Source: Escherichia coli (GTDB lineage Bacteria; Pseudomonadota; Gammaproteobacteria; Enterobacterales; Enterobacteriaceae). From it: 64,000 bases of DNA. Of the stretch, positions 24,688 through 64,000 are shown piece by piece; position 1 is the stretch's first letter, and the number at the start of each line of letters is the position of its first letter. Location of the stretch: assembly GCF_013315695.1 (NCBI RefSeq), contig NZ_CP054355.1. One strand, written 5' to 3'. The position numbers were made by a program, and so were the translations under genes. The notes under the pieces were generated by a model that saw only the letters and a list, made by a program, of their open reading frames with translations, was not told the DNA's origin and did not search any database.

Positions 24688-24720
24688 GGGCTCCGTTTGG
24701 GAAACGGAAAATATTGTACG

Positions 24721-29639: not shown

Positions 29640-29880
29640 CTTTCAGCCATGAGAGAGCTTCTGTGCGCGGTCGGAGTGGTCCCGACGAGGGTTTACCCGA
29701 AGTCGGGGCGTATCTCCGCGTTAGCGGGCCGTGAGGGCCGCTTACGAGCGTGTACTGAGAACTTCCAGCGAGAAGACTGACAGCGATGATGATGTAGTTA
29801 CAACATTCATAATTAAAAGCGACTCTGTTCCGGCCCTTCGGGCCGGGGCGGGGCCGCTTTTCAGTTATGAGGGAGGGGCT
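29640..29880. other. structured non-coding element X, candidate single-strand initiation (G-site-type) priming signal downstream of oriR
   Basis: Several hairpins (ccggcccttcgggccgg); shares gtcccgac...ggccgtSagggccgcttacgagcKtgta with element Y at 60560-60730. Confidence 0.35.
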
Positions 29881-29999
29881 TTGTTGTTTCGGTTCTGCGC
29901 TGGACCGGGGTTTTCCTGGTGGTTGTATTTGAGTGTTGTAACTAAAATGGCTCCGGTCGGGGCCCGCCGCTTGCGGTGGGAGGTGCATATCTGTCTGTC

Positions 30000-30350
30000 C
30001 ACAGGACAGGCAATGAACAGGTTTTCTTTTTAAATGAATGTAATTAAGTAGTTTAAAGGAGATATAAACAGGTGTTTAAAAGATACATTGCACCCTGTAA
30101 CGCTGGCGGCTGGCGCTTTATGAGGTGAACGGTTGTAACCTTATCGGGAAGTCCCTTGCAGTTTAATGTGGATAAGCACAATTACCCGTCTGTGAGGCGT
30201 ATTTTGTATTAAAAACAGGGGGAACCGGATGCACCTGAAGGTGGATGGTGAGGTTATTTTTTGTATGTGGTGCTGATTTTTTGTGCACTGGCGGGCTTCA
30301 GGCGTGCGGAAGCCTCCGGCGCGTGCCGGATTATTCTGAGGAGGTCACTT
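30000..30350. other. IncFII origin region (oriR) downstream of repA1
   Basis: Position directly 3' of repA1; DnaA box tgtggataa at 30167-30175. Confidence 0.5.
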
Positions 30351-31208
30351 TCAGGGGGAAGCTGTAGCCAGCCGGCTGTAATTGCGGTTACGTGACAGAA
30401 TCATGCGCTCCTTCACACGACGCTCCACTTCGCGTTTTACCGTCTCACCATTAGCAGTAAAGCGCCCTTCCGAGATTTCACGCGTCAGCTGCCGTTTCAC
30501 CAGGGTGACGATATCCTGACGTTCCCTGTTCGCATCACGACGCGCACGGGCACGTTTTATTCCACGGGACTTAAGCTCTGTCTGGTAACTGCGGAAACGC
30601 TCACGCACAAAACGCCAGGCTTTCGCTATTAGTTCATCCATACCCAGGGTATCCAGCCCCTGTTTTTTGCGCTGTCTGTTTTCCCATTCAACACGACTGC
30701 GGCGCGCAGCTGCCACTGCATCCTCAGACACATCAAGGGCAGCAAACAGAGCCGGTGTGAACGTGATATCGGTCGGAATGTAGCACCCGATAAGCGGGTC
30801 ATATTCCGTCTGGTAGGTAATCAACCCCAGCTCTGACAGGAACGTCAGGGCACGGGTGGCACGAGTGATGGAGAGTTTTCCTGCACCGGACTCTGTCGCC
30901 AGTCCGCACTCAATGGCCAGCGTGGTGATGGAGCACTGGACGCGGTTGGCCAGCGGGTCATAGTGGAAACACAGCCCCTGCAGGAGCGCATCAATAGCCC
31001 GTCGACGCAGCACCGGTGGCATGCGTCGACGCAGACCACGCGAACGGGCATGCGCCACATGAATGGCGAAATCAAAACGGGAGGTGAAGCCCACCGCCTT
31101 TTCCATCAGTTTTTCGCAGAACTTCAGCGTTCCGGCACCTTTACGGGGTGTAAACACCGGATTCGGGTTCTTTACCTGGCGGTAATACGTTTGGTGAAGA
31201 TCAGTCAC
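30351..31208 (-). CDS. repA1: IncFII replication initiator RepA1
   Basis: 285 aa from a GTG start, [19 protein letters not shown]...RLATASP, as remembered for R100/R1 RepA1. Confidence 0.85.
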
Positions 31209-31295
31209 ACCATCCTGCACTTATGTTGCACAGAAGGAGTGAGCACAGAAAGAAGTCTTGAACTTTTCCGGGCATATAACTATACTCCCCGCATA

Positions 31296-31386
31296 GAGCA
31301 ACAGCTTCTATGCAGTTTCTTGTTAGCCCCGGTAATCTTTCCTACTCGCCAAAGTTGAAGAAGATTATCGGGGTTTTCGCTTTTCT
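31296..31386 (+). ncRNA. copA: CopA-like antisense RNA of the IncFII replicon (approximate)
   Basis: Plus-strand stem-loop ccccggtaatctt...aagattatcgggg followed by ttttcgctttt, between repA2 and repA1. Confidence 0.45.
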
Positions 31387-45519: not shown

Positions 45520-46029
45520 TTAACTAACAGACTCTTTTTTGAATAGTCCTATTACTGAGGCTATAGCTGAGAGATTATAACGATTTATATCTATGGTATA
45601 CACCAAGAAAAATAATATGAATGTAATCATTAGTGCAAAAACATATAAGATAGAATGCATAAACGAAACCATAGAAAAAACAATCAAAAACAACAAAATA
45701 TATGTCTTACTCTTAGAATACATAAAATTTATTATTTTTGAATCCTTTCTGAAACTATCAGGAATCGCAAGGTATAACATCATTCCATTTGTAATAGCCA
45801 CAAAAAGCAGGAACCCCATCATTCCACTAGCACATATATCAAAGCCAACATCCCTGACATCACTTTTAACCGATACTAAACGCAGAAAAGTTGGCCATAA
45901 TAAAACCCATAAAAACACATAAGTTCCCGGCTTTATGACTTGTAATAATGATGGGATATTAACACCCTCTACAGAGAGTACCTCCTTTAGTTTCTGCATC
46001 TCCATTTTTATATCATAGTGAGTGATCAT
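45520..46029 (-). CDS. traS: entry exclusion protein TraS
   Basis: AT-rich hydrophobic 169-aa ORF between traG and traT. Confidence 0.65.
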
Positions 46030-48851
46030 AATGGCCCCTTCAATCGTTCTTTCTTATCATCCACCATCTGTTTTAACGCATCTTCAGACGGTGTTGGCAT
46101 TAATTTCTGTCGTTTATTTTCTTCATTATATCTGTTGTTTTGCTGAATTTCTTCCTGTTTGTGATTATTTTTTAACTCTGAATATTGTCTGTCTACAATA
46201 TTTTCTTCGCCATGAATACTATTCTGAGTATCTCCGATATTCCCTTTATATTCTGTGACCATATTATCAACCTGATGTTTTACATCATTACGGATATTAC
46301 TGTCCTGCGTTCTTTGATCAATAATGACCTGATGCCCCTGATGGTCAGCAATAATATCCTGGCTGCCACCACCCGAAGGTACGCTCTCCATTCCTTTACC
46401 AATATCCCCACGGGATTCACGCCAGGCATTATCAACACCAGGCTGTACCTGTTCCTGCACAAAAGACCACGCCATAGCCCGACGGCGTTCTGCAATCTCC
46501 GGCGAACTGGTATTTGTCAGAATAGCTTCTGCATCCTGCGGTGCGCGTTTCATCACATACTGTGCAAACTGTTGCGACAAGTCTTCACTCATCTGCCCGC
46601 TCATGCTTTCAGTACGGGAGGCCATTTCCGCATATTCATGGCTGCGGGTCATATTCGTCGTGTACTGGTCGTAACTCTGTTTTGCTGAGTTCAGGGCTGC
46701 AGACAACTGGTCCACGCGGGAATCGGCATTATTGTCAGTATGGCTGCCGGATTCACTGACTTTGCGACTGGTAAAGTAATCGCTGGCCTCTTTAAAGTCC
46801 TTACTGGCTTTAGCATCGATATCATGGCGAGCATCATGGGTAGCCCTGCTGCCACTACTTGCTGAATGTGAGTCATCATCCGTTGCATCCAGGCTCCCCT
46901 TAAATCCACCTCTGATGCCTACCCCACCACCAACACCAAGAATTTTAGGTTTAACCCCCCATTCAGCATGAGCATCAGCATACATTCCACCAGATAGCCT
47001 GGTACTTGTTGATGCCAGTTCCTGAGTCGCCTGCTCATTACTGATATTATGCGCCTTCGCATAGCTTTCCACTGCACTGCGCATACGGCTGGCCATCATG
47101 GAGTCCTGTGCGCTCATCGTGCTGTCAGCACCACCTGTGACAGAATCACTGCTCCCCCGGTTAGAACCAAACTGGCTGAGCGAGTTCCAGGCACTGGCAA
47201 TACTGCTGCTGAACCCATGCAGGGCGCTTTCTGCTCTGTTCGACGCCTCCCGGGCCATTTCCTGTTGTGCCGCTGCAATCTGACGCGTTGCATTGATACC
47301 AACCGGTAACCGGGACATCGCCCCGCTCGCATCCATCACCATATTACCGTCACGGGTCTGTGTGGCAGTTGCGCCACTGCCGGTCTGGTACATCATCTGA
47401 CCAAACGACGTGGTGCTGTTGGTGCTCCAGCTGAAGCCGTTCACGTTTTCCGTCTGCATGTTGCCGTAGGAGTAATTACCGTCAACCACACTACCTGCCG
47501 CACTGGCAGTCGGGCTGATAGCAGAGGAAGCGAAATGGCTGTACACGCTGGAAAAACCTGCGCCAAGGCCTTTTACCATCATCCATGACAACGGGGGTAT
47601 CATGACAGATATATATCCGGCAGTGGACGCCAGGTCGGAGTATTTCAGCTGTATCTGAGAGAGTTCAGAGAGCACGACCGGTGCACCATTCTGCTTTGCA
47701 TAGAATGTCATGGCACTGTTCAGAATGGCATACAGCAACGGCCAGGTCTGGAACCACATCAGAGCAAACACATAGCCTCTCAGAACAGACAGCGTCAGTC
47801 TGTTGAAGACAGCCGCCAGTACCAGGAGCGGGAAGATACCAATGGTAATGCCCACCAGAATGGTCTGCACCATCGGCAGGTTTCGCATCAGCACATGACC
47901 AATGGAGACATGTGCCAGACGCTGTTTCTCCATTGACGAAGTCGTGGCCAGACTGACCAGGCTGGCGGTATCACCGTTACGGGCTGCATTACTGGTGATA
48001 CCCTCTTTCAGGGCATTCATGGTGACGTTCTGGCGCATAATATGACTGGCAGACTGGCTGGAGCCGTAGAAATAACTGTAACTGTCACTCACCAGTTGCC
48101 TGAATAACAGGTCCGGGTCCGGTCTGCCGCCAAATATCTGCTGCACATAATAATGCCAGGTCTTGCCTCCCGTCTTTGTATCGAGATTCAGCCTGTCTTT
48201 CAGCGTGACCGACGCATCTTTACAGGTTATGAAATTATTATTGCTGTCATAAACGCCCCGTAGCGGGCTGGGCCGGGAAAAAATCAGCGTGTAGGGGTCA
48301 CCGGAGGCCATCAGGTCTTCCAGCGTGTATTTGTGGTTCAGGTAAATATCCCCCAGCACGCAGTTCTGGACGTAGTCCTGAAACAGATTGATGATTTCCG
48401 GATTCCGGGACAGAAAATCGGTGCTTTTCACAATCAGGTTCGCCCCGAACAGCATGCCTGTCTTGCTGTAGGTGGCGCTGTCAGGCTGGGTGAATATCAT
48501 CTCGTAACTGGCCACCATTGCATGCCCGATACGGGTCGTCAGTGAAAGTGGCATCGCCAGTCCGACCGGCACATTATCCACCCGGTGAACTTTGACCAGG
48601 TCACTGTTATCAATAATCTGCACCGATGTACGGACATTAACCAGCAGGCTGATAAGCACAAACACGGCCACCCAGCCCAGCAAATCCATCACGTTGTGCC
48701 GCTGTACCCACATCACGGCCACCGCGAGAACAGACAATGTGAGCGCAATTTTTTCGATGGAATCCCACGTCCGGGTCCCCATAAAGGCGGCAATGGCGTT
48801 CAGGTTATTGCTTAACCACTCACCACCGGCAATCACATAGACTTCATTCAC
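46026..48851 (-). CDS. traG: mating-pair stabilisation protein TraG
   Basis: 941 aa, polytopic N-terminus, position. Confidence 0.85.
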   Translation of the reverse strand: MNEVYVIAGGEWLSNNLNAIAAFMGTRTWDSIEKIALTLSVLAVAVMWVQRHNVMDLLGWVAVFVLISLLVNVRTSVQIIDNSDLVKVHRVDNVPVGLAMPLSLTTRIGHAMVASYEMIFTQPDSATYSKTGMLFGANLIVKSTDFLSRNPEIINLFQDYVQNCVLGDIYLNHKYTLEDLMASGDPYTLIFSRPSPLRGVYDSNNNFITCKDASVTLKDRLNLDTKTGGKTWHYYVQQIFGGRPDPDLLFRQLVSDSYSYFYGSSQSASHIMRQNVTMNALKEGITSNAARNGDTASLVSLATTSSMEKQRLAHVSIGHVLMRNLPMVQTILVGITIGIFPLLVLAAVFNRLTLSVLRGYVFALMWFQTWPLLYAILNSAMTFYAKQNGAPVVLSELSQIQLKYSDLASTAGYISVMIPPLSWMMVKGLGAGFSSVYSHFASSAISPTASAAGSVVDGNYSYGNMQTENVNGFSWSTNSTTSFGQMMYQTGSGATATQTRDGNMVMDASGAMSRLPVGINATRQIAAAQQEMAREASNRAESALHGFSSSIASAWNSLSQFGSNRGSSDSVTGGADSTMSAQDSMMASRMRSAVESYAKAHNISNEQATQELASTSTRLSGGMYADAHAEWGVKPKILGVGGGVGIRGGFKGSLDATDDDSHSASSGSRATHDARHDIDAKASKDFKEASDYFTSRKVSESGSHTDNNADSRVDQLSAALNSAKQSYDQYTTNMTRSHEYAEMASRTESMSGQMSEDLSQQFAQYVMKRAPQDAEAILTNTSSPEIAERRRAMAWSFVQEQVQPGVDNAWRESRGDIGKGMESVPSGGGSQDIIADHQGHQVIIDQRTQDSNIRNDVKHQVDNMVTEYKGNIGDTQNSIHGEENIVDRQYSELKNNHKQEEIQQNNRYNEENKRQKLMPTPSEDALKQMVDDKKERLKGPL

Positions 48852-50230
48852 AGCGTGCTCCCTCCGAAGTGATAGTTGTTCTGGTAACGGCTGAGCATGC
48901 GGGCGGAAAGCTGCTGGCGCATGTAGCTCATCTGACGGTCAACAACCAGCAATGCATCCTGCTGGACCTTTACCTGCCCCTGGAAAACCGCAATCTGTTG
49001 CTGTGCCTGATTCAGATTCTCCAGCACACTGTCCAGCACGGTCTGTGGATAGTTCCCGGTGGCAATCATGGCCCGGGCCTGCTGAAGCAGTTCCTGAATG
49101 TACTGGAGCATGATGTCGTAGCCGATATAGTCCGTCAGCTGGTAAACCACGCTGCTGGACACACCGAGCATCTGCGGGTCAATAAGATATTTAAAGACGG
49201 GGACGGTGGTGCTGGAAATGAAGCCTTTTTCCCTGTCATCCAGTGGAGTATCACTCACCGCTTTATTCTGAATACTGGTGAGCAGTTTTGTAATCTGTGA
49301 TTTCAGGGCTTTATCCCGGGCGATGGTCACATTTGCATCCGCCACCACCTTCAGACACTTGTCCGAATCGTTGCAGTGATAAACTTTTGCCGTTCCCCCC
49401 TCCATAATCGCCCGGAGGATATCGCGGTCAGTGGTACGCGCCGGCAGGGGGGTAATCTCGCTGTCTTCCCCAAAAATCAGCGTACCGGTGAGCGTCATAA
49501 TAAATTCTTTCAGTTCTTTGTTACCATCAAGCATCCTGTTTTTGGACAGCGAGTCCCAGATGATATTGATGTTCTTCAGCACCCGTTCCTTATCTTTGTC
49601 ACTGGCCTTGTCACGAACAGACGATGACTGTCCTCCGACCGTGCAGCCCTGACGGGACGCGGCCCAGTCAGCAAAAATATTGCTCTCACCGGCAATGTCC
49701 TGACAGACCTTCTGCTGTGACACCTGAGTCTGAGGAAATAATCCTCCGACAATCCCCTGCGCCACCTGACAGGAGCTGAGGTTCATACTGTTAATGTCGC
49801 TTGCCATTTTCTGCAGGAAGTCTTTTGCGGTTTTGATTTCCGGCACCGTTGCCTGCAGGGCAAGGTCAAAAAAGTAACCGGCAGCGTTGCTCATAATCTG
49901 CTTAACAAAACGCTGCAACTGATCGCCATTAATAAAACTGAACGAGCCGAGATAGGCGTCGATGCCGCCACATCCGGCATTGATATCCGGCAGCGTCATG
50001 GAAATCAGCTGGATATTTTTGACCTGGGTGCGGGCATACAGGGAGCCACCATAGGCATACCCGGCGGCCTGCCCCTGCCAGACGCCCGGTTGTGTGGTAT
50101 TGGAAGCAAATCCCAGCTTATTAAAGAACTGATTCATGTCGCTGTTCACATCCGCTGACGCTGCGGGTGTGACCGTCAGTAAAGCGGCACAAAGAACCAG
50201 AAGAGGTTTAATGCGAAGCATTATTGCCAC
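48848..50230 (-). CDS. traH: pilus assembly protein TraH
   Basis: 460 aa with signal peptide, position. Confidence 0.85.
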   Translation of the reverse strand: MAIMLRIKPLLVLCAALLTVTPAASADVNSDMNQFFNKLGFASNTTQPGVWQGQAAGYAYGGSLYARTQVKNIQLISMTLPDINAGCGGIDAYLGSFSFINGDQLQRFVKQIMSNAAGYFFDLALQATVPEIKTAKDFLQKMASDINSMNLSSCQVAQGIVGGLFPQTQVSQQKVCQDIAGESNIFADWAASRQGCTVGGQSSSVRDKASDKDKERVLKNINIIWDSLSKNRMLDGNKELKEFIMTLTGTLIFGEDSEITPLPARTTDRDILRAIMEGGTAKVYHCNDSDKCLKVVADANVTIARDKALKSQITKLLTSIQNKAVSDTPLDDREKGFISSTTVPVFKYLIDPQMLGVSSSVVYQLTDYIGYDIMLQYIQELLQQARAMIATGNYPQTVLDSVLENLNQAQQQIAVFQGQVKVQQDALLVVDRQMSYMRQQLSARMLSRYQNNYHFGGSTL

Positions 50231-50633
50231 CCTCCCTTAATTTGTTCTCCCGGCGCATACGGCGTTTCAGCCGGAATATTCTGATCCCCCCGTTTATTAA
50301 TTCATTTAAAGGGTTCCTGACGTATACGATAAGAAATCCACCTGCAAACGCCCATAACGTATACGGAATGACATACATCAGGATGTTCCACATATAACGA
50401 AAATTATTTAATTCCGGGTCAGCTTTCCACGAATCAATACAGGCATCAAAAATACTATGCATAATCACCCATAAAAAAGTTCCGGCAGCAACGAACACAA
50501 AAAACAGATCAAAATATATATCAGAAACCCTGCGTTCATAATCATAATCCCGTTTAGTTTTTCTGTTTTTTAGTTCCGCATCATTTCTTTTTTCTTTCAT
50601 TATAAGTTTCCTCTGATATTTCCGATGATTCAT
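50208..50633 (-). CDS. trbF: TrbF (start uncertain)
   Basis: Small membrane protein between trbJ and traH. Confidence 0.55.
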   Translation of the reverse strand: MNHRKYQRKLIMKEKRNDAELKNRKTKRDYDYERRVSDIYFDLFFVFVAAGTFLWVIMHSIFDACIDSWKADPELNNFRYMWNILMYVIPYTLWAFAGGFLIVYVRNPLNELINGGIRIFRLKRRMRRENKLREGGNNASH

Positions 50634-50961
50634 TCAGGCCGTTCATGCGGCTGTAATATATTTCAGACACCGAAATCCATCCCACAATTGCCCCCACAAA
50701 AAACACAACAGAAACAGAAAAGGTAAGACACAGCGAAACGACAATTTCCACAGGGCTGGCGGGATAAAAAAGCCCCTGACGGATAAAGGGGATATTCAGG
50801 CTGACGATTATTCCCGTCGCGATGCCGGATATTCCGGCAATGAGTAACACCACCTGCTTATTTCGTACCTTTTTCCTCTCCGTACATCTGCAGAACGGTA
50901 TCCATCCGCGCCATAAAACTGGCGGCATCCGTTGCCCCCTGCAAAAGCGGTAATGCCTCAA
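50581..50961 (-). CDS. trbJ: TrbJ (start uncertain)
   Basis: Small membrane protein between trbB and trbF. Confidence 0.5.
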   Translation of the reverse strand: MRHYRFCRGQRMPPVLWRGWIPFCRCTERKKVRNKQVVLLIAGISGIATGIIVSLNIPFIRQGLFYPASPVEIVVSLCLTFSVSVVFFVGAIVGWISVSEIYYSRMNGLNESSEISEETYNERKKK

Positions 50962-51403
50962 GTGTGTTGACGTTGACCAGGAAGGTGGTCGGTGTGGCCA
51001 CCGGGATATTCGGGAAGAAGGTCTGCATCACGTCCGGTGGCACCGGTAATGCTTCCGGAAAGGCGGTATCCCCCTGACCATCCAGGGTGTAGGGAAAAAC
51101 GGAAAAGCCGTACTGCTGTGCCAGCTGTTTCAGTACCGGGTCAAACTGGTGACAGTAAGGGCAATGCCCCTGCATAAACAGCACCACCTTCCAGTCGGCC
51201 AGGTTAACCTGCCTGCCGTTGCTGAGGCGGAACCAGCGGGGAGCCGGCTTTTCTGTTCTGGCTGATGTGTCTGCTGCCGGTTGTGCAGGCTGCACGGCCA
51301 TACCCTGCGGATTCCAGAGTCGTTCAATTTCATCCCGGGTGGAGGCCTGCACACCTGTGGCCATCATCAACAAAATGACCGGCAGTAATTTAGTGAGAGA
51401 CAT
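50858..51403 (-). CDS. trbB: periplasmic thiol:disulfide isomerase TrbB
   Basis: 181 aa, signal peptide, CPYC active site. Confidence 0.8.
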   Translation of the reverse strand: MSLTKLLPVILLMMATGVQASTRDEIERLWNPQGMAVQPAQPAADTSARTEKPAPRWFRLSNGRQVNLADWKVVLFMQGHCPYCHQFDPVLKQLAQQYGFSVFPYTLDGQGDTAFPEALPVPPDVMQTFFPNIPVATPTTFLVNVNTLEALPLLQGATDAASFMARMDTVLQMYGEEKGTK

Positions 51404-51674
51404 GTCCGCCCTCCTGCTGCCCTTCCATCATGGCCTGTTGCCTGGCTTCCAGTGCCTCACGCTCTTCCAGGCTGACACGTGCAATCCATGCATCCAGCAC
51501 CTGGTATGCGCCGAACAGCACAAGGATGGCCGCAATCAACTCCGCCAGAAAAAAAGCCATCCAGGGTTTGCTGTAAACAAGACGGGCGACGATATGAAAC
51601 CAGACACCCAGGGAAAATACCCACATTCCCGTAATATCAAGCCGTGGTAAAGAGAATCTGCGTTTACTTATCAT
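51390..51674 (-). CDS. traQ: pilin chaperone TraQ
   Basis: 94 aa membrane protein, position. Confidence 0.75.
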   Translation of the reverse strand: MISKRRFSLPRLDITGMWVFSLGVWFHIVARLVYSKPWMAFFLAELIAAILVLFGAYQVLDAWIARVSLEEREALEARQQAMMEGQQEGGHVSH

Positions 51675-51754
51675 GTTAAACTCCGGTTATTATTTACATG
51701 AGAGTATTCATGTCTGTAATATTCGCGTTTGTGTGATATTAATCAGAGGTACAA

Positions 51755-52090
51755 ATGAAAAAGTTATCTTTTAAAGAAAAACTGGAAATAGTGAGAAACA
51801 TCATAAGAGAGTCATTATCAGGTAATGCGGCTTTTGCTTTACTGGTGTATTCATTATTGCACTCCCTCCCCATTAAAACCTTTGCTGATTTATTTGTGAC
51901 GATACTGTTATTTATAGCGATTATCGCTGTTGTGATATGGCTATTTCTAATCATCTATGTTTATTTTTGTGAGTTATTCAGAAGTCACTGGATAGCAGTC
52001 TGGTTTATCCTCTGGTCTGTGGTAATCAACCTCACTATTGGATTTGGCATTTATGACAAATTAGCACCAGTCATTTCACTAATGAAATAA
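51755..52090 (+). CDS. artA: anti-tra-strand membrane protein ArtA-like
   Basis: Hydrophobic ORF on the opposite strand between traQ and trbA, as in F. Confidence 0.5.
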   Translation: MKKLSFKEKLEIVRNIIRESLSGNAAFALLVYSLLHSLPIKTFADLFVTILLFIAIIAVVIWLFLIIYVYFCELFRSHWIAVWFILWSVVINLTIGFGIYDKLAPVISLMK

Positions 52091-52412
52091 TAAAAAACCA
52101 CATCACTCCAGACCATATGGCTGACAACATAATACAAACAAACATCCTTCTGAAACTGTCAAACTTCGTGATAACTGGTATGGTACTGACTGCCATTGAA
52201 ACAACCGGTACGGCACACTGATTCATAACCGCACCACAAAGAAACAAGAAATTATCTGGCAGCATACATACACTTATGACATTTACTACAAAGAAGACAA
52301 ACGAGCTCAGCAGATAAACTCCTTTATTATTTGGTCCTGTAAAGAAATAACCAACAACCCCCACGATAAACAGGCTGGCACCTGTAAAAAAACACAAATC
52401 CCCTGTATGCAT
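52071..52412 (-). CDS. trbA: TrbA
   Basis: 113-aa membrane protein between traF and traQ. Confidence 0.65.
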   Translation of the reverse strand: MHTGDLCFFTGASLFIVGVVGYFFTGPNNKGVYLLSSFVFFVVNVISVCMLPDNFLFLCGAVMNQCAVPVVSMAVSTIPVITKFDSFRRMFVCIMLSAIWSGVMWFFIISLVK

Positions 52413-52425
52413 ATATAACCTTTGG

Positions 52426-53199
52426 TTAAAAATTCGGTTTAAAATCTTCAGAAACGTTCAGGAACTGTTTTGCCAGGTCGTCCTGTGAAATAAAGCCGTA
52501 TGATAACGGGCGAACACTGCCCTGTTTCGGGTCAACCAGCATCATGGCCGGGAAATATTTCACACCGAGGCGCTGCGCCTGCCCCTGGTCAGTCCGGGAA
52601 TCCGGCAACAGCGGATTAATCACGCCATCCACGGAAACGGGAATAACACTCAGACCATAGGTATCCCTGAAGCCATTAATGACCTGCGCCAGTTGCCCGT
52701 CGATGGGGTCCTGCCCCCGGTAAAAGAACATGATGCCGTAGTGTTCAGCCAGTTTCGCAATGGCCTGTCGCTGCTGCGCCTGGTCTGCCGCCAGCTGGTT
52801 CCGGACCGTGCCGTTGTAATGGCTGTACTGCAGGTTATAGTCCAGTTCGGGATGCGCCAGCATGGCTTTTTTGGCGCTCATGGTGAAAAGCCCGGCCTGC
52901 TGAGTCCAGTAATTCTGCAGCCGGAAATATTTCACAAAATTATCCACGCCGGGATACAGAATAGCTTCGTACAGCGCCCGCTTTGTTGCCGTCTGCAGCG
53001 CGGTCAGTTTCTGCATAATGTCCGGCTCCTGACGGGGGGCTGCAGGTACTGGTTTATTTTCTTTTTCCTTCGGATTTATTTTCTCGTTATACCACTGCCA
53101 GCCTGCATCTTTTCCTGACGCCGGAAAAATAAAGCAGCAGAGTAACAGTGGCAGTAATGCTTTATTCATCTTCATTCCTTTCATCACTTTTTCTTTCAT
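52426..53199 (-). CDS. traF: pilus assembly protein TraF (thioredoxin-like)
   Basis: Signal peptide; position and size (about 247 aa from MNKALL). Confidence 0.8.
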   Translation of the reverse strand: MKEKVMKGMKMNKALLPLLLCCFIFPASGKDAGWQWYNEKINPKEKENKPVPAAPRQEPDIMQKLTALQTATKRALYEAILYPGVDNFVKYFRLQNYWTQQAGLFTMSAKKAMLAHPELDYNLQYSHYNGTVRNQLAADQAQQRQAIAKLAEHYGIMFFYRGQDPIDGQLAQVINGFRDTYGLSVIPVSVDGVINPLLPDSRTDQGQAQRLGVKYFPAMMLVDPKQGSVRPLSYGFISQDDLAKQFLNVSEDFKPNF

Positions 53200-53422
53200 C
53201 AGGTTTCTGCAGGTCAGTCAGGGCAGAAAAACAAAAATACAGAATAAACAGAAGCACACCGGAGTAAAGGATAACGAAAGCAGCAGCAAGCATCTCACCT
53301 GCAGTGGTTTCTTTTACCGTATCCCACGACCAGATAATTACCGGGGAAATGACAAACGCTGTAATCAAAAGCCGGATAAGAAAATCAATAAAACGGTTCG
53401 ACGTGAATATGACTTTCATCAT
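53162..53422 (-). CDS. trbE: TrbE
   Basis: 86-aa membrane protein between traN and traF. Confidence 0.65.
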   Translation of the reverse strand: MMKVIFTSNRFIDFLIRLLITAFVISPVIIWSWDTVKETTAGEMLAAAFVILYSGVLLFILYFCFSALTDLQKPDERKSDERNEDE

Positions 53423-53445
53423 TTCCCCCGGTTATTTTCCATACC

Positions 53446-55296
53446 TTACTGTCCTGCCTGTTTCAGCTGGTCAGCAATCTGCTCTTTCACTTTCTGCGTC
53501 AGAACGCCACTGTCCGGGATTTTCTGGTTATTCATCAGGTCTTCGTAGAAGTTAGTGAAATCCAGTCTGTCGAACTGAATTTTCTGCAGCTCATCAACCG
53601 TAATCCCCCGACAGTCAGGATGCTTCGCACGGCCAAAACTGATACGCAGCTGACCGTTGCGCCCCTGCTGCTGGACTATCTGCGCCAGCTTCGAATCAAA
53701 CTGACAGTAGCTGCGTTTTTTCTGCAGACAGACACCCAGCACTTTCTTCGAACAGAACTCTCCGACACTGACGGTCAGTTTGTTTGATTTTGCTTTAGCC
53801 AGGGCCTTTTCATCACTGCTGCATTTGGCCAGCCCGATATCCTGTCCCCAGCCGCTGTCCTTACAGCAGTTGCTGTATCCGGCTGCAGCCTTCTTACAAA
53901 ATTTCGCCTGACCGGTGAAAGCACGGACATCCACCCCGTTCAGCGCCGCAACATCCTTACCTGCTGCGGCCAGTGCCGCCAGCTGAGAAACGGCTTCGGC
54001 AAAATCATTACTCTGCCCGCTCTGAGCCTTATCACATTCGCCATCGAGACAGAAGACGTCTCCCCCACAGACCATCACTTTCCCGGATGTTTTTGACTCG
54101 CAGGAGTACGTGGCGTACTCATGCAGACAGGTTCCCTCATCGGAATAAAACGCGCACTGACGTGAGGCCAGCGTACAGGCCGGATTATCGACATATTTCT
54201 GACAGGTGCCGTTATCTGCGGACTGAGTGACATATTTATCCCGGTATGCCCAGCATGCCTGTGTGATGTTCCAGGGTTTACCTTCCATCACTCCGGTTTT
54301 CGTACCACCCGGCTCTGAACACTCAGTGCCTGTCAGCACGCCATCCGCTTTATTAAACGGACAACTCTCCACCCACTCCACCCGGGGAACCCATTCTTTA
54401 TCACGGACCTTCATCCTGAGTTTCAGCGTAAAGGTGGAAGCACCACTGACAAGCGATTCATAGACTTTCCTGTCACCATTCCCGTGCGGGAGGCAATTAC
54501 CGTTAGCAGTACAGCCACTACCGGTCAGAACCTGCCCCTGTGTCACCTGCAAACCTGTCGCCCCGGACAGGGGGTAAGTATCCGACTGCCCGTTTGCCAG
54601 GCCGACATTAAAGGTTGTATTCATGAAGGTATAACGGGAGTTCAGGAAGAAAAAAGCGGCGTATACAGACAATGATGCACTTTCCACTGTACCGGTTACC
54701 GGAGCCGTGACACTGAACACCAGTTTCAGCCCGTTCATACTGAACCGGAACTGTGAGTGCGGTATCGTCACTTCACGATATTCATCCGTGTATTTCCAGT
54801 CCCCGGTGATACTGGCAGTCCGTGTGCAGTACTCCTCCACCATCGTGTCCCGCTCACAGGTATAGTTTGTGAACTCACTGCGGTTTATCTGCTGCGCACT
54901 GCACTGCTGCCCGGTGTTTCCCACAATGCTGTCAGCCCGGTTCACCACATCCCTGCCGGTCTGAATGAACGGTGCATCCGGTGACAGAATGTCTTTCGGC
55001 TTGTTCATGAAGGACTCTGTGATGGTTTTTCCGGTTTCACCGGTCGCCCATTCCGTGGTGCCGTCATTTTTCAGGCCGCCATCCCCGCCGGCAGTCACGC
55101 CACCGTAATATTTTGTCTCGTCCGGATTCGCGTTATAGCTGGGGATACTCTCCTGTGGCTTAAAGCCCTGAATACTGCCTGTACCCTGCCCCTGAATCTG
55201 ACGGGCAAAATCAGAACCGGCCCGGTAATCACTGTTGCTGTCAGCCTGTGCCATGCCGGCAACCAGAGCCAGTATCAGAGGTAAAATACGTTTCAT
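53446..55296 (-). CDS. traN: mating-pair stabilisation outer-membrane protein TraN
   Basis: 616 aa, Cys-rich, signal peptide. Confidence 0.85.
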   Translation of the reverse strand: MKRILPLILALVAGMAQADSNSDYRAGSDFARQIQGQGTGSIQGFKPQESIPSYNANPDETKYYGGVTAGGDGGLKNDGTTEWATGETGKTITESFMNKPKDILSPDAPFIQTGRDVVNRADSIVGNTGQQCSAQQINRSEFTNYTCERDTMVEEYCTRTASITGDWKYTDEYREVTIPHSQFRFSMNGLKLVFSVTAPVTGTVESASLSVYAAFFFLNSRYTFMNTTFNVGLANGQSDTYPLSGATGLQVTQGQVLTGSGCTANGNCLPHGNGDRKVYESLVSGASTFTLKLRMKVRDKEWVPRVEWVESCPFNKADGVLTGTECSEPGGTKTGVMEGKPWNITQACWAYRDKYVTQSADNGTCQKYVDNPACTLASRQCAFYSDEGTCLHEYATYSCESKTSGKVMVCGGDVFCLDGECDKAQSGQSNDFAEAVSQLAALAAAGKDVAALNGVDVRAFTGQAKFCKKAAAGYSNCCKDSGWGQDIGLAKCSSDEKALAKAKSNKLTVSVGEFCSKKVLGVCLQKKRSYCQFDSKLAQIVQQQGRNGQLRISFGRAKHPDCRGITVDELQKIQFDRLDFTNFYEDLMNNQKIPDSGVLTQKVKEQIADQLKQAGQ

Positions 55297-55772
55297 TTCC
55301 CGGAATCTCCTTTCCCTGCCAGTAAATCATGAGCCACCTGCCGGCAGTCACCCGTGGCGGCCACTTTCTCCAGCGCCAGGCCGACCCGCAGGTTTCCCCG
55401 GATGATGTCGTATCCCTGACTGCAGAACACCACCAGTGCCGGTACACTGCGAATGCCGTACTGTGAAAACAGCGTCGGGTCGATCTGAACACCATCAGTC
55501 GCGCCGTCTTTCACCAGGGACAGCACGGCTTCAGCGGTGGTCTTCAGGTCATTGTTCACCATGCCCCGCAGTGTGGCCGGAATACCGTAGTGCCGGGTTT
55601 CGCCCAGCATCCGTTTCAGCCCCTCTTCGGGAATGGAAAACGACACAAAATACAGGGCACCCTGCCGGGGTTTCCCGTCCTGCGAAGCCTGCTGTTTACG
55701 AACCAGCTCATCCAGAAAATGGTTATCTGAACGCTGAAGGGGGTTTTCCAGCACCTGTTTCTCCGCCCAGGC
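55293..55772 (-). pseudogene. trbC: TrbC, 5'-truncated by IS1
   Basis: Reading frame runs open into the IS1 left end at 55773. Confidence 0.65.
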
Positions 55773-55827
55773 GGTGATGCTGCCAACTTACTGATTTAGT
55801 GTATGATGGTGTTTTTGAGGTGCTCCA

Positions 55828-56103
55828 GTGGCTTCTGTTTCTATCAGCTGTCCCTCCTGTTCAGCTACTGACGGGGTGGTGCGTAACGGCAAAAGCACCG
55901 CCGGACATCAGCGCTATCTCTGCTCTCACTGCCGTAAAACATGGCAACTGCAGTTCACTTACACCGCTTCTCAACCCGGTACGCACCAGAAAATCATTGA
56001 TATGGCCATGAATGGCGTTGGATGCCGGGCAACAGCCCGCATTATGGGCGTTGGCCTCAACACGATTTTACGTCACTTAAAAAACTCAGGCCGCAGTCGG
56101 TAA
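55828..56103 (+). CDS. insA: IS1 InsA
   Basis: 91 aa, [23 protein letters not shown]... Confidence 0.9.
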
Positions 56104-56525
56104 CCTCGCGCATACAGCCGGGCAGTGACGTCATCGTCTGCGCGGAAATGGACGAACAGTGGGGCTATGTCGGGGCTAAATCGCGCCAGCGCTGGCTGTT
56201 TTACGCGTATGACAGGCTCCGGAAGACGGTTGTTGCGCACGTATTCGGTGAACGCACTATGGCGACGCTGGGGCGTCTTATGAGCCTGCTGTCACCCTTT
56301 GACGTGGTGATATGGATGACGGATGGCTGGCCGCTGTATGAATCCCGCCTGAAGGGAAAGCTGCACGTAATCAGCAAGCGATATACGCAGCGAATTGAGC
56401 GGCATAACCTGAATCTGAGGCAGCACCTGGCACGGCTGGGACGGAAGTCGCTGTCGTTCTCAAAATCGGTGGAGCTGCATGACAAAGTCATCGGGCATTA
56501 TCTGAACATAAAACACTATCAATAA
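56022..56525 (+). CDS. insB: IS1 InsB (expressed as InsAB' by frameshift)
   Basis: 167-aa ORF in the -1 frame relative to insA. Confidence 0.85.
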
Positions 56526-56540
56526 GTTGGAGTCATTACC

Positions 56541-57248
56541 AAAGTCCGGGTCATTACGACGTTTAATCAATTCATCTGCAACGAGGAAACTGGTATCACT
56601 GGATGCCATGCGCAATGCACTCATTGCAGCTTTCGTAACTGAAGACACACCAATGCCAGAATTACCATGAATGGCACTTACAGAGTCAAATTGACCAACG
56701 ATAACACCAACATCAAGCGTAGTGCCGCCAATATCAACTACCAGCGATTTTTCGAACTGACCAACTTTATCCACGACCAGACGAGAAAACACAGCTGGCA
56801 ATGATTCAGGCATCACATCAACGTGTTCAATGGTGAAAACATCGCCTTTATTAAGACGAATCGGCCTCATTAAATTCTCAATTTTACGCTGAATGTTGAG
56901 TTCATTTTTTTGACACTCTTTCGTATAGAACTCACTGATAGGCAAAGTCACAGTCAATGATACAGGCTGAGGCGCTAATCCACTATTCAGTAAAGCGTGA
57001 TGCACAGCTAACAGGTTAACATCCGTATATTGATACTCAATATGAGTCGTAAGAATAGATTGGTTGCTAACTTCATCATACGTGTATTTTTTACCATCCA
57101 GTTCATAGTTAAATGTCTGGCGAATTCCTAACCCGTCAACCTTCCATCCATGACGAAATGAGTTTTGCGACAACGACTTACAGATTTTCCCATTATCATT
57201 CCATGCCAACTTGATTGTTGTTGAACCATCATCGCAGTATACGTTCAT
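56541..57248 (-). pseudogene. parM: actin-like segregation ATPase ParM/StbA, 3'-truncated by IS1
   Basis: N-terminal ..DDGSTTIKL.. actin-fold phosphate motif; frame reads into the IS1 right end; no parR follows. Confidence 0.65.
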
Positions 57249-57476
57249 CTATAGCCCCTTAAATACTCAATCTGAGTAAATCATTGTTTCTGGTTGCAAG
57301 GTAATACTCAATTTGAGCACCATCATAGTTATGAAATCACAAAACACAAGTATTATTTATTACATCACATGGCACACTTCACATTTCATACTTCATAAAT
57401 ATGAACACATATTGACACCTCAGGTTACCGTGTCAAAATATCATCATACTTCACACATCACATTTATGAGGTTGCA
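57249..57476. promoter_or_regulatory. parC-like centromere/promoter region shared by divergent par genes
   Basis: Direct repeats (atactcaatYtgag x2; acttcaca-type repeats) between the divergent parM and parA starts. Confidence 0.5.
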
Positions 57477-58527: not shown

Positions 58528-59337
58528 TTATGCGTGTCTGTTTTTCAGCATTGTGACCGCATCGGACTCAGGCATCGAAAACTGCACCCGGTGCCGTGCA
58601 GCCACATCCAGCGCAAACACCTTCGTGTAGACCTCCGTTGAGCTGATGGACTTATGCCCCATCAGGCTCTGCAGGACCTTCAGTGGTATACCGGCATACA
58701 GCATGTGCATCGCATAGGAATGGCGGAACGTATGTGGCGTGACCGGGACAGAGAACGTCACACCGTCAGTAGCAGCGGCGGCAACCGCCTCCCCAATCCA
58801 GGTCCTGACCGTTCTGTCCGTCACTTCCCAGATCCGCGCTTTCTCTGTCCTGCCTGTTCGTTTATTACGCCGTTCCAGAGGAATTTTCAGTGTTGCCACC
58901 ATCGTCTGCAGCTGACTGACGTACCAGGAGTCGGAGAGCGGAACCAGCCGGTGAGTCTGCTGTCCGGCAGGCGTTCTTCCTGCCGTCCTGGCGGCTTTTT
59001 CGGTCCGCTGCTTCAGAGTGGCCAGCTGCACAAACGGATACGGAGGCGCGAGCGAAAAATCCCCCCGCGTCAGCGCCAGTGCTTCATTAATGCGCGCACC
59101 GGTGTTCCACAGTGTGGCCAGCAGCATCTTGCGGCGCAGATCCGGGACGTAATGGAGCAGGGCACTCACTTCCGGAGCCAGCAGATATTTCGGCAGTTCA
59201 TCATGAACCATCGACATCTGGCGAAGTGCCAGAGCTGCCGGATAATCAATGACAACAGGAAGTTGTGGAGACTGTCCGGCAGAATAAACTGCCGGTACCC
59301 TGGCTGCAGACTGGCTGTGTATAACGGAGCCTGACAT
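58528..59337 (-). CDS. resD: tyrosine site-specific recombinase ResD (multimer resolution)
   Basis: 269 aa with C-terminal R..HxxR..Y catalytic pattern; adjacent to ccdB as in F. Confidence 0.75.
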   Translation of the reverse strand: MSGSVIHSQSAARVPAVYSAGQSPQLPVVIDYPAALALRQMSMVHDELPKYLLAPEVSALLHYVPDLRRKMLLATLWNTGARINEALALTRGDFSLAPPYPFVQLATLKQRTEKAARTAGRTPAGQQTHRLVPLSDSWYVSQLQTMVATLKIPLERRNKRTGRTEKARIWEVTDRTVRTWIGEAVAAAATDGVTFSVPVTPHTFRHSYAMHMLYAGIPLKVLQSLMGHKSISSTEVYTKVFALDVAARHRVQFSMPESDAVTMLKNRHA

Positions 59338-59863
<526 letters not shown>

Positions 59864-60559
59864 AGTACACCTCTTTTTGACATACTTCGGGTATGCATAT
59901 AAGTATATATTATTATGATGCAAAAATCAGCGCGCAAATACACATACTGTTATCTTACTTTTAGTAAGCCTTATTTATTTTACCTTGCGTTATGTTAACC
60001 AATAAAAATCAAAATCTGACTTATAAAAACAAACCGTAATTATCGCATTCCCGTTTCCGTCAGATCCGACTTTCATTAATATCACAACTTTCCGGAAGTG
60101 TACCACGCTGAGAAAATCATCATATCACTGTTTTCCGCCCCTGCGCGGCGCATCACAGGTCAGGGAGATGGCACAACATATAGTGTAATTAACAGCTAAA
60201 TTCAGCACTACATGTTGTGCTGACGGGAGATGGCGCTGTGCGGCGGGAGAGGAAGATCCGTGACTACCTTTTTTCGGATCTTATTAGTGTAGAAGAACGA
60301 TTGTTGCGGTGAGGGGATTATTGCTTAGGAAGCAAAATTCAAAACTGACTAAGCCAGAAATAGCAACAACAAGATAAGGAAATTTTCCCCCTCAGCCCCT
60401 GCATGCCGTGAGGGGGAGCAACTACCCAACTACAGTTTTCATTTTATGATACGTCTTCACTAGGTAATACCTGTGAACTGACAGAGTCTTTACGGAATGT
60501 ATGGCGGACCTAAATTTGATCCCTGAAAACTGTCAGCGCTGCGAGGACGAAGAAAGTAT

Positions 60560-60730
60560 TACGGCTAAAGCCGTAATACCTCCCCATCCAGCTTCAAGCT
60601 ATGTAGAAACTTATGTGGGTAGAGCAGTCCCGACAGGGCAGTACCGCATTGACAGGCCGTCAGGGCCGCTTACGAGCTTGTATGACAAGGGGGGCCTAGC
60701 GAATTATTGTACGGTAAGCCTTTTTTGAAC
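60560..60730. other. structured non-coding element Y (diverged homologue of element X)
   Basis: Shares ccccatcc...cttYtgtg...gtcccgac...ggccgtcagggccgcttacgagcttgta with 29640-29770. Confidence 0.35.
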
Positions 60731-61054
60731 AGCCTTACCTATTGCTATAGAGGGGAACTCCTACGTTATACGCCGCTTTCAGGGGATTCGACCTTAATGA
60801 GACAACTCAAATATGATCGACAACTTAAACGCGATAGTTGCTGATAAAATCAATCCATTACGCGTTTCAATTGATTAAATAATGCACTTAATGTACAAAA
60901 ATTCCCGATCTCAAAACTGAACCCTAAAGATACCAGGCATCTCCCCCAGGAAGCGCCCTCATGCGTTTTCCTGTTCCGCCCCTGCCACCTACCTTCTGTT
61001 ACATACTTGTTGTATTATTGTTTTTGTTTTCAATCCCCAAGGAGACGTCGCTAT

Positions 61055-61222
61055 ATGACTGTGCGGGAGACAGAGGAAAACATTGAACAAATCTTCCCTG
61101 AGCTTTCGAACTTAATTGATATTATTAATAAATGGCTTTCCCATGGAAACATTGATCCTGAACTGGCACACTTCATCATTTATCTTCTTGATTACCTAAC
61201 CACCACACACAAAAGCATATAA
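61055..61222 (+). CDS. small acidic protein (55 aa), unknown function
   Basis: ATG preceded by AAGGAG at -10; followed by a terminator. Confidence 0.4.
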   Translation: MTVRETEENIEQIFPELSNLIDIINKWLSHGNIDPELAHFIIYLLDYLTTTHKSI

Positions 61223-61332
61223 AAAATTTCCTTGCACATCCATTTTTTTGCGAATATTATTATTCCTGCTGAATATGATTCAATATCGCACGCTACTCAT
61301 CCATCCCAGGATAATGAGTTCATAGGTTGAAG

Positions 61333-61360
61333 TCTCAACACCCCCACTACGGGGGTGTTT
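61333..61360 (+). terminator. Rho-independent terminator
   Basis: acacccccactacgggggtg hairpin followed by T8. Confidence 0.6.
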
Positions 61361-61488
61361 TTTTTACCAATAAACACAAATCACACCATCGCCATACTCT
61401 GTTTGCCAGACATCGATTGGTAAATATGCGTAACTCGCTATAATACAAAAAGAAAAATCAGAACCAGAAACCAGTTTCCAGATAAAAA

Positions 61489-61513
61489 ACACCCTCCCGA
61501 AGGAGGGGACAGA
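61489..61513 (-). terminator. Rho-independent terminator (minus strand)
   Basis: ccctcccgaaggaggg hairpin preceded by an A-run on the plus strand. Confidence 0.5.
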
Positions 61514-62047
61514 CACATTCATATTTCCCAAAACAGGAATTTTTATTTTTATGACGCATTAATGAAGTTACTTCATCTCCAGTAGATTAACTTCATTTAA
61601 AGTGGCGATCAATCATATTTATTACGACTCTAAACTATTACAACAACCACAATAAGATATCACCTCAAATATAAAAGATAATTCTTACAAAAACGTTCCG
61701 AAAACAAAAAATACAGATAAACACCAATTAATTCAGAGCAATCTATTGCGAAGAATCAGAGTAACAGGGCCCCATGATATAATCATGGGGCCCTGTTGCT
61801 TTTACAGATGTAAAAACGACCAATCATTTAACATCTGTTATCGGCACCGCCCCGGACGGGTTCGGCGCAAATATGGTATGGTACCAGCCCGGCAATTCAC
61901 CTGCCGTGCAATCTGACGAAGCAGTACCGGCGTATGCAGATATATCGTCCAGACATATCTGCCGCATTCAGGCGGTGAGTAAAGCCTTCTCTCTCAAAAG
62001 AGGAGCAACAGTTATCCACAGATTCTGGGGATAACTGCGAAAAGAAT

Positions 62048-62188
62048 ATGTGCCAGGAAAGTCGGCTCCCGGGAAAAAGACCGCTGGCGGCGCACCTGCT
62101 GGATACGAAAGCTGAGCTGAAAGGATCCCGGGAGGACGTCCGTAAACTTCAGTCCCTGGCCCGTCATGACGGGAAGGCGAAAAAGTGA
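62048..62188 (+). CDS. small basic ORF (46 aa) coupled to the downstream ORF
   Basis: Stop TGA overlaps the GTG start of the next ORF (GTGA); weak RBS. Confidence 0.25.
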   Translation: MCQESRLPGKRPLAAHLLDTKAELKGSREDVRKLQSLARHDGKAKK

Positions 62189-62826
62189 ATGCGGACACCT
62201 GGACCCGCCTGCAGGCCTTCCGACATGCTCTGGAGCTGACTTCCTGTGAGGCTTCTCTCACCGCCGGGTATGATCACCTGAAGGATTTCCCGGCCGGTTG
62301 CAGCGAGCTGGCCAGCCAGACGCTGACTGATTATCTGACGGAAGACGGCAGCAACCTGTACTCCTGTATTGTCGGTATGCAGTGGGATAATGGTCCTGGC
62401 AGATACGGCCACGTCATTGCCGACCCTGCCAGGGACTATATCGACCTAACCCTTGATCAGTTTCCAGGCTATCATAACCGGATTGTGGCAGAGCCCGTTG
62501 AGTCCGGCGGACAGCTCGCGGCAGACCTCAACAGGGAGCCTGCCATCAGTACAGCTGATGGAATAGTGGCCAGCCCATCAGATAAGGTTAATTACATTAC
62601 TGAACAGAAAAATCGCCAGCCAATGGTGATCATTACAGAATGTTACAAGCTGATCAGAATGACGGCAAGATTTATACCAATGTGCCAGTCATCTCAACTC
62701 TTCCAGCACCAGGTATTCCCTCGCTTATTTATCATTTCAGACGTTGGCTCCTGCAGTTTGTCCAGGAACACCTTAGATCGTTTAGCTACTGACTGGAAGG
62801 TGACACTGTCCATCCTGTCGCTATAG
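62185..62826 (+). CDS. hypothetical protein (up to 213 aa; C-terminal extent uncertain)
   Basis: N-terminal 160 aa look protein-like with several Cys and a GHVIAD segment; convergent overlapping ORF on the other strand. Confidence 0.3.
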   Translation: MNADTWTRLQAFRHALELTSCEASLTAGYDHLKDFPAGCSELASQTLTDYLTEDGSNLYSCIVGMQWDNGPGRYGHVIADPARDYIDLTLDQFPGYHNRIVAEPVESGGQLAADLNREPAISTADGIVASPSDKVNYITEQKNRQPMVIITECYKLIRMTARFIPMCQSSQLFQHQVFPRLFIISDVGSCSLSRNTLDRLATDWKVTLSILSL

Positions 62827-64000
62827 GGCTTGATATAAACCTGGCAGGCAAGGGATCTGGTTAACTCCTTTCCTTCAATAAAGTGTTTGAAGATCCAGAG
62901 ATACGTATCCACAAGCTCCAGCCCTGTACTCTGTGTCCCCGACTGGAAGACCTGCGGTTCAGCTGGTATTTCCATTACATCCATGACCGGTGTCTGCGCA
63001 GCAGTGCCTGTCATCAGGATCCTGTCACTCTTTCGACCGACAGATTATGGCATACAGTTGGGCTCGTAAGATCCAGAGTCAATAACTGACAGGGTTTATT
63101 CTGTCATCCTCCGGCAGCAAAGGCATATACGATATTCACTTATTTTGTCGGTCCAACGGCTTTTTACAGTAGCTCGTTTTGCCCAACTGATGCTACAGCT
63201 CTTTGGTTTGCTTCATCACGGATATCAGCTCCGACACAGGCACAGCTGACTGGTTGCAACGTCTGCACTTCTCTGGACCTGAAACGTCAATTATCAGGAT
63301 TCTGACGATTAGTCTTAAGACTGTCGGTAAATTAAGTGATGCCAGTTGTCAGGATATTCATGGAGCCAGTCTGCATGCGCCTCTGGCGTTGAGACAAACA
63401 TATGAAGTGTATTTCGGATATGACTGTACGCTCAGGAAGTACGGCAGATTCCGTCAAAAATTACCTGTAAAGACAGACTTCAGAAAAAACAGTGCTCGCC
63501 GCAGACCGGTGACCGGGCGAAGCCCGCGAACCGGCGAGGAAGCGCAATATATCTGTAGTTACAGTGAGCAGGTACGCCCTGAAGCCTTCATAATCGGTAG
63601 TGTATGTTGTTTTTCCGGAATGATTTATCCACATATCCAGAGGCCCGATCCAGTAAACAGATCCATGAATGATCAACAAAGGATCCATTAAAGATCCCCA
63701 TATCGCTGCAAACCTTGTCACTCATGGGCCGGGACCACGTTCACATAAGCTGTGGCATGTTATGGATAAACTGTAACAGGTTCATGATAAGCTGTATTCA
63801 GTAATGCATATACTGAAGTAAGTTAATGACATAAACTATGGTCAGTACGCCAGACTCAGTTGTTAAATACAGACTGCAGGTTTTTCTTCAGTCAGTTGAC
63901 GGGGTTCTGACACACGATTTTCTGTTTATTCTTTTACTGTCCACAGGCAGGAGGCTTTCTGGAAAACGAAAATTCAGACATCAAAAAACTGTTCGGCGAG

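Follow-up and report, generated by a model that had tools for sequence, protein, structure and literature searches.

A probable relic of an IncFII-family priming signal in the backbone of an F-like plasmid

A 64,000-nucleotide stretch of an Escherichia coli plasmid (NZ_CP054355.1), called the window below, contains two homologous copies of a short non-coding element, which we refer to as X and Y. X is intact and lies beyond an IncFII-type origin of replication. Y is probably a non-functional fossil of the same kind of post-origin priming signal. It is homologous to X, has lost the structure and the genomic context of the intact elements, shows no conservation at the protein level, and has decayed further in some related plasmids. 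Judged from its sequence, Y has probably lost its function and is most likely inert at present. Elements of this kind are already known from the G site of plasmids R1 and R100; Y is an unannotated, degenerate member in a well-known plasmid, ordinary plasmid debris rather than a new element.

In intact replicons, such as those carrying X and its R100 counterpart, about 100 nt of one strand would fold into a three-helix junction located 600 to 760 nt beyond the rep stop codon. Once the origin is unwound, the folded single strand, situated past the origin and a pair of ter sites, would prime synthesis of the leading strand. In R1, the host primase DnaG alone primes at the G site. Y would have descended from such an element through two or three deletions and through substitutions that abolished helices P1 and P2 and weakened P3. 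It would now be carried along in the F-type backbone between unrelated modules, without rep, origin, or ter. The features on which this reading is based are listed in Table 1.

Table 1. Positions of the main features in the window
Feature	Position	Strand	Basis or remark
Copy X, intact family member with three-helix junction	29652..29757	+	model R1, ssDNA fold
ter core GTTGTAACTA, between oriR and X	29795..29804	-	
ter core GTTGTAACTA, second of the inverted pair	29935..29944	+	
DnaA box TTATCCACA of the IncFII-type origin	30167..30175	-	perfect
IncFII-type repA1	30351..31220	-	stop codon 620 nt from the core of X
CopA RNA	31293-31382		Rfam
resD	58528-59337	-	
ccdB and ccdA	ccdA 59645-59863	both -	
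Y module (left hairpin and decayed core), 152 nt	60534..60685	+	limits of flank homology
Perfect 10-bp hairpin GTATTACGGC-TAAA-GCCGTAATAC	60556..60579		folding, self inverted match, alignments
Decayed core of the family element	60604..60685	+	covariance model, alignment, pair table, fold
Preserved 3' block GGCCGTCAGGGCCGCTTACGAGCTTGTAT	60653..60685	+	P3 loop, P3 3' arm, and P1 3' strand
Breaks in colinearity with F	61731-61729 and 63020-63340		about 73 F bases missing at the first

The intact copy X and its family

The DnaA box and both ter cores lie between repA1 and X, and X comes first beyond the second ter core. These two cores were the only matches to GTTGTAACTA in the window, where 0.04 matches were expected by chance. 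As single-stranded DNA, X folded with an energy of -27.2 kcal/mol on the + strand (z = -4.0, with none of 200 shuffled sequences folding as well), as compared with z = -1.5 on the - strand. A nearly identical copy is present in R100 at 90263-90368, on the strand opposite to repA and 600 to 700 nt beyond that gene. In its location past the DnaA box and both ter sites, in its distance from repA, and in its near-identity to the R100 sequence, X resembles the G site of R1 and R100.

Masai and Arai reportedly found in 1989 that the leading strand of R1 needs no priming protein other than primase and starts at a "G site" situated some 400 bp downstream of oriR, and Jiang et al. are said to have placed, in 1993, the leading-strand start of NR1 near the 3' end of repA4. 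R1 replication runs from oriR away from repA. If replication in the window leaves oriR in the same direction, the fork would move leftward and the + strand would be the template of the leading strand. X would then fold on the very strand that templates the leading strand, as a priming signal requires. We take X to be the R1/R100 G site, that is, the primase-dependent start of the leading strand; the label comes from the literature, and the position was computed. The assignment draws on the position of X, on these reports, and on one sentence of a review, according to which both ter sites of R1 lie between oriR and the start of leading-strand replication (PMC10331603). The repA4 region, which spans the stretch that contains X, was identified by transposon mutagenesis as essential for the maintenance of pEC958 (PMC4398462).

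Relatives of X were collected by scanning one genome per species for GCCGCTTACGAGCNTGTA. The scan returned 40 loci, about 25 of which were true relatives; the other 15 or so were chance 17-mer matches in unrelated phyla and were dropped upon inspection of their flanks. Twenty-four relatives, all of them on plasmids of Enterobacterales (Pectobacterium, Shimwellia, Hafnia, Erwinia, Enterobacter, Klebsiella, Raoultella, and others), could be aligned over about 100 nt, and RNAalifold returned a three-helix junction as their consensus structure. Its helices are P1, in which TGCGCG pairs with CGTGTA; P2, a long bulged hairpin of the form CGGAG..CCCGAC..GGN-loop-NCC..GTCGGG..CTCCG; and P3, GTTAGCGGGCC-GTNA-GGGCCGCTTAC.

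In the alignment of 25 sequences, 98.5% of the cells were in standard pairs, and four pairs covaried, with compensatory changes in 23 cells. Neither the covariation score nor the paired percentage was reached in any of 500 shuffled alignments, and sliding the pairing partners by 1 to 3 columns reduced the paired fraction to 32-50%. The covariation corresponds to about four independent events and is thus supportive rather than overwhelming. Because several of the pairs are G-T wobbles, the fold is specific to the + strand.

In the eight loci with available flanks, X included, the rep stop codon was 609-757 nt from the core, and rep was on the opposite strand. The rep genes at family loci encoded either an IncFII RepA (70-98% identity) or a related 358-aa Rep, and a CopA-like RNA or the I-complex repBA pseudoknot (PK-repBA) was found near intact members. 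Members of the family are thus markers of the site that follows the origin in replicons of the IncFII and I-complex types. The sequence GTGTA-CTG was present in X and in nine close relatives and absent from the other members.

No match to Rfam 15 was obtained at X or Y at the gathering scores. When the threshold was relaxed to E <= 10, Y still had none, and the one match near X, 28 nt beyond it, was at chance level (E 3.2). None of the inspected records had an annotated feature over the family element, the PLSDB tables covering almost only protein-coding genes. The family has a three-helix model backed by covariation and a tightly kept position relative to rep, and it could serve to mark origins and the direction of replication. 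This model and the positional rule belong to X, not to Y; they are perhaps of modest practical use.

Homology of Y to X and its decay

The preliminary description of this DNA placed a second copy of a structured element at 60560-60730. A second copy is indeed there. A local alignment of 60560-60760 with 29600-29800 scored 56 (z = 16.5); among 1,000 dinucleotide shuffles, the mean score was 16.7, with a standard deviation of 2.4 and a maximum of 31, and none reached 56. X was the best-scoring site for Y on either strand of the whole window. In a blastn comparison of 60300-60900 with the window, 60644-60682 matched 29716-29754 with 85% identity and an E value of 1.4e-6. The gapped local alignment extended over 60583-60688 and 29631-29761, and MAFFT also aligned the two copies. 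The indels that had been noted between them were seen as gaps of 1, 3, 1, 1, and about 20 nt, because of which a gapless repeat finder missed the pair that blastn and Smith-Waterman alignment detected.

The homology is narrower than was originally thought. It is limited to 60596-60685 (29635-29757 on the side of X), whereas the remainder of the described span, 60686-60730, belongs to an unrelated module of about 240 bp. The boundaries of the fragment as a whole could be set from related plasmids. On the left, a diverged homologue of the flank in plasmid L060 stops at 60530, and homology to the Klebsiella locus L006 begins at 60534; on the right, homology to a ColE1-like module starts at 60686, which puts the edge at 60685/60686. 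The resulting Y module appears, from these homologies, to be an imported fragment of the post-origin region of an IncFII-family replicon. Two loci, L004 and L006, are intermediates that align with both X and Y. The 10-bp hairpin in the left part of the module also precedes the intact element in the Klebsiella-type loci L006 and L052; therefore, Y probably came from such a lineage and subsequently suffered three deletions.

The word "structured" describes the ancestry of Y, since its family folds and covaries, but not Y itself. A covariance model, R1, built without X and without Y, gave Y 13.3 bits (E 0.32), as opposed to 123.5 bits (E 1e-27) for X. In the window, the model matched nothing besides these two copies, and in F, a chance match as weak as that of Y was found elsewhere in the plasmid. 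The single-stranded fold of Y was no better than those of its shuffles, the z score being +0.2 for the + strand and -0.1 for its complement; the scores of L006 and L004 were -2.7 and -2.2, respectively.

All three helices are affected. P1 has a 4-nt deletion. In P2, about 20 nt that make up the 3' strand of its inner part are gone, and two of the five outer pairs are broken. P3 has lost 3 of 10 pairs to uncompensated mismatches in its 5' arm. The changes that break the outer P2 pairs and the P3 pairs are confined to the 5' side, and most of the broken pairs in the pair table of the family are due to Y. Out of 75 near-invariant columns of the family, Y retains 44, has altered 13, and lacks 18. 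Unlike the G site of R1 and R100, Y has two of the three helices missing and the other weakened, adjoins neither a rep gene nor an origin, and has a model score no higher than noise, although it is homologous to X.

The surroundings of the intact elements are missing as well. Within 1 kb of Y, a scan of the window detected neither a rep gene nor a DnaA box nor a ter site; the nearest rep gene is that of RepFIB, more than 3 kb off and with its start beyond position 64000. No CTG start triplet occurs 3' of the block within about 75 nt, up to 60760. F retains, immediately to the right of Y, 9 nt (GTCTGGATA) that are deleted here and contain a CTG 17 nt downstream of Y. Near-identical plasmids have 8- or 9-nt indels at 60700, the right edge of Y. 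In the metagenome contig L053, the core of Y has an internal deletion of 37 nt and a 1-nt change in a run of G, and in E. coli LGMV01000155 (L054), an IS element is inserted at about 60590, some 15 nt to the left of the core. Both variants are a sign that Y tolerates disruption.

The decay of Y is uneven along its length. In the preserved 3' block, 19 of 20 near-invariant columns are matched by Y, versus 25 of 55 in the 5' part. This asymmetry would not be expected from uniform neutral decay. The block is unvarying in all 25 family members, and in three lineages, represented by X, by L014, and by Y and L004, its 3' edge is the exact point at which the flanks part. The asymmetry could reflect continued selection on a primer-template or recognition block, gene conversion by which a co-resident intact copy renewed the block, or recombination inside the block. 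With its ruined helices and intact 3' block, Y can be viewed as a natural "mutant" that suggests which part of the element to test first.

One use of the preserved block would be priming. The main rival to the fossil reading, unlikely if not implausible, is that the + strand of Y continues to act as a single-strand initiation signal, primed by DnaG or through PriA by way of the preserved 30-nt block and residual small hairpins. Such a signal could serve RepFIB/RepFIA replication or the synthesis of the complementary strand on the transferred strand. F has several ssi signals, five of them reportedly mapped by Nomura et al. in 1991; the family-sense strand of Y in F is opposite to the tra genes and would be the strand that is transferred; and a perfect hairpin stands 25 nt upstream of the core. 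Together with the retention of the block, these points speak for activity. They are outweighed, in our assessment, by the loss or weakening of all three family helices, a model score indistinguishable from noise, a fold that shuffled sequences equal, the missing CTG, the distance to the nearest rep gene, and the natural variants that have lost 37 nt or have been cut by an IS element.

A stronger version of this idea would make the invariant 30-nt block GGCCGTNAGGGCCGCTTACGAGCNTGTA, and not the hairpins, the real determinant of recognition and the primer template. Y would then retain minimal priming activity on the strand that F-type plasmids transfer, and it might be one of the ssi signals of F. 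We regard this as distinctly unlikely; if true, it would explain why only the block escaped decay.

The block might alternatively be a double-stranded site, bound by a protein or used in recombination, or it might be gene converted with a co-resident intact copy and act as a portable crossover point between replicons. Its identity in 25 of 25 members and the divergence of the flanks at its 3' edge are compatible with this explanation. Y, of the X-like subtype, and L004, of the I-complex subtype, have the same right-hand module, and this sharing, combined with the divergence at the edge, is the pattern expected from recombination within the block. However, no known binding motif was recognized in it, base pairing and a primer-template role account for its invariance in intact members, and the block, being identical everywhere, carries no direct trace of conversion tracts. 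We therefore consider a site of this kind very unlikely and favor the interpretation of Y as a fossil.

Comparison with known priming signals

The oric of phage G4, the prototype of a primase-only signal, is comparable in concept: hairpins form on single-stranded DNA covered by SSB, and a start triplet comes after them. In X, a CTG stands 9 nt after the last helix, as compared with 4 nt after stem-loop I in G4, but this triplet is not conserved across the plasmid family. The G4 signal consists of three independent hairpins, whereas the plasmid elements form a junction. A BLAST search of 50,697 phage records produced no match, model R1 had none in the G4 genome, and a MAFFT alignment with the G4 oric yielded scattered identities only. 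Given the negative outcome of both the phage BLAST search and the R1 model search, membership in the G4-type oric class was rejected.

Frpo is likewise a structured single-strand signal of F-type plasmids, one that starts RNA synthesis; its hairpins mimic -35 and -10 boxes, and it is found in the leading region next to ssb and psiB (bioRxiv 10.1101/2023.02.15.528439). In contrast, the stems of X and Y contain no promoter-like hexamers, and both copies lie by replicons rather than in the leading region. A Frpo-type reading of Y is unlikely.

The ssiA of F, next to ori2 (PMC4398462), and the ssi of ColE1 (PMC5935869) are, like the family described here, non-coding hairpin signals near origins that start DNA synthesis on single strands. 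These primosome assembly sites of the PhiX174 type differ from it in that they depend on PriA, and they have no consensus in common. A model search linked neither X nor Y to ColE1 or to the ori2 region of mini-F. Y is not ssiA itself, which is located between resD and repE. Nor is it part of oriV-1/rfsF of F, since the homology to RepFIA ends at 60281.

The plasmid backbone around Y

The plasmid in the window is an IncF plasmid, similar to F and of the pUTI89/pUM146 type. A segment of 401 bases around Y was found at 95-100% identity in 362 plasmid records, nearly all from Escherichia, and Y did not vary among these plasmids. This invariance says little because the flanks are conserved to an equal degree, and the divergence among the 362 carriers was too small for footprinting to be informative. 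F itself has an identical Y at 40686-40775 on the minus strand of NC_002483. The covariance model found no intact member of the family in F, as the RepFIC replicon of that plasmid is truncated after tap.

Y was previously described as lying upstream of ccdA. Its start is indeed about 740 nt from that of ccdA, but no relation to this gene was evident. The homology to the RepFIA/ccd segment of F stops at 60281, leaving Y outside, and the sequence from 60265 to 64000 is colinear with F 41106-37621, upstream of RepFIB, at about 98-99% identity and with two short breaks (Table 1). The pif operon of F, about 4.8 kb long, is deleted in the window plasmid. Y is near ccdA because of this deletion, and nothing else ties it to ccdA. 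At 60265-60281, the two F segments (the F 45922 side and the F 41106 side) are joined with an overlap of 17 nt. The joint may have arisen by site-specific recombination involving rfsF and ResD or by recombination at short homology.

It is highly improbable that Y is a transcribed RNA element, be it a small RNA or a cis-acting regulator of ccdAB or other neighbors. Small RNAs are common in this plasmid: the Rfam matches in the window comprised CopA, three tra antisense RNAs, and UptR (61268-61359), with CopA 31 kb and UptR 0.6 kb from Y. The fold of the family would also accept G-U pairs and is strand specific. On the other hand, Y does not fold and resembles nothing in Rfam even under the relaxed threshold, and neither a promoter-like site upstream nor a terminator on the + strand was found. 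Y is outside the ccd/oriV-1 homology, in F it is separated from ccdA by the pif operon, and the intact members of the family track origins rather than particular genes. Readings of Y as a terminator or a promoter were discarded for want of supported sites.

Y overlaps an open reading frame of 75 codons with an ATG start (60501-60728, + strand), which had been judged to be probably not coding. The frame exists and is almost certainly a chance open frame without a coding role. Searches of Pfam and NCBIfam with the frames over X and Y identified no family. A search of 5.8 billion proteins with the 75-aa translation returned 16 proteins, all from this same locus and 53 to 114 aa long, among them frameshifted read-throughs, a deletion of 4 residues, an internal deletion that switches the frame, and an N terminus fused to an IS element. 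Plasmids that are more than 95% identical have indels of 8 nt and of 37+1 nt inside the frame. The core common to the two copies is read in different frames, as GREGRLRAC in the ORF over X (29592-29780, + strand) and as RPSGPLTSL in that over Y. The RefSeq annotations of pUM146 and F contain no gene here.

Across the family, loops have one-nucleotide indels and substitutions cluster at base pairs where they compensate one another, which is the reverse of what a coding sequence would show. That the frame encodes a small protein, its likeness to X being incidental, is barely credible. It has an ATG-started run of 75 codons to its credit and is predicted by some gene callers in metagenomes and in a few genomes. 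Against it stand the single-locus origin and ragged ends of its database matches, their frameshifts, deletions, and IS truncation, the 8-nt and 38-nt indels that break the frame, the different frame over X, the silence of RefSeq, and the lack of a promoter-like site upstream. Recognition of Y as a probable fossil thus removes a spurious 75-aa gene candidate, together with a supposed regulatory element linked to ccdA.

The DNA to the right of Y has a different origin. The non-coding module at 60686-60925, about 240 bp long, has 76% identity with sequence that precedes rop in a ColE1-like plasmid of 4 kb (NZ_CP034954, 1747-1987); in a plasmid of Citrobacter freundii, the module is fused to the end of an intact family element. 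Its resemblance to the Xer core is weak and it has no alignable similarity to the cer site of ColE1, an identification that was consequently rejected. Next to the module, 60925-60993 corresponds, in antisense orientation, to part of the 3' domain of a ColE1-type RNA II and is 84% identical to ColE1 1048-1116. It appears from this match to be a relic of a ColE1-like replicon in the F backbone. The F/pUTI89 backbone is thus, in this part, a patchwork of replicon debris, in which the probable G-site relic is followed by the module that ColE1-like plasmids also have and by the piece of ColE1 RNA II.

Elsewhere in the window, perfect inverted repeats of 48 nt (24688-24735 and 28515-28562) surround a segment of 3.8 kb, at the end of which is a gene for a serine recombinase (27854-28516). 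By blastn, the arms of this repeat share ATTGTACGTTAAGGC with the start of the module at 60686-60925, and by eye they look like the right end of that module. The arms may be a recombinase site or the end of a transposon.

UptR, beyond the RNA II fragment, is a full-length Rfam match of 123.6 bits with a strong terminator at its end. It is preceded by a 55-aa ORF (61056-61222), which is annotated by RefSeq in F.

The tra operon (46026-57300) apparently ends at about 57.3 kb; traG, traH, and several other tra ORFs precede this point, and a parA-like gene at 57477 comes directly after them. Given this end point, oriT and the tra genes closest to the promoter could be absent or located elsewhere in the plasmid. 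Also within the tra region, about 11 to 15 tandem copies of the 9-nt unit TGGCTGTTG occupy 41820-41960. This array may correspond to Gln/Pro repeats in a tra gene that is encoded on the opposite strand.
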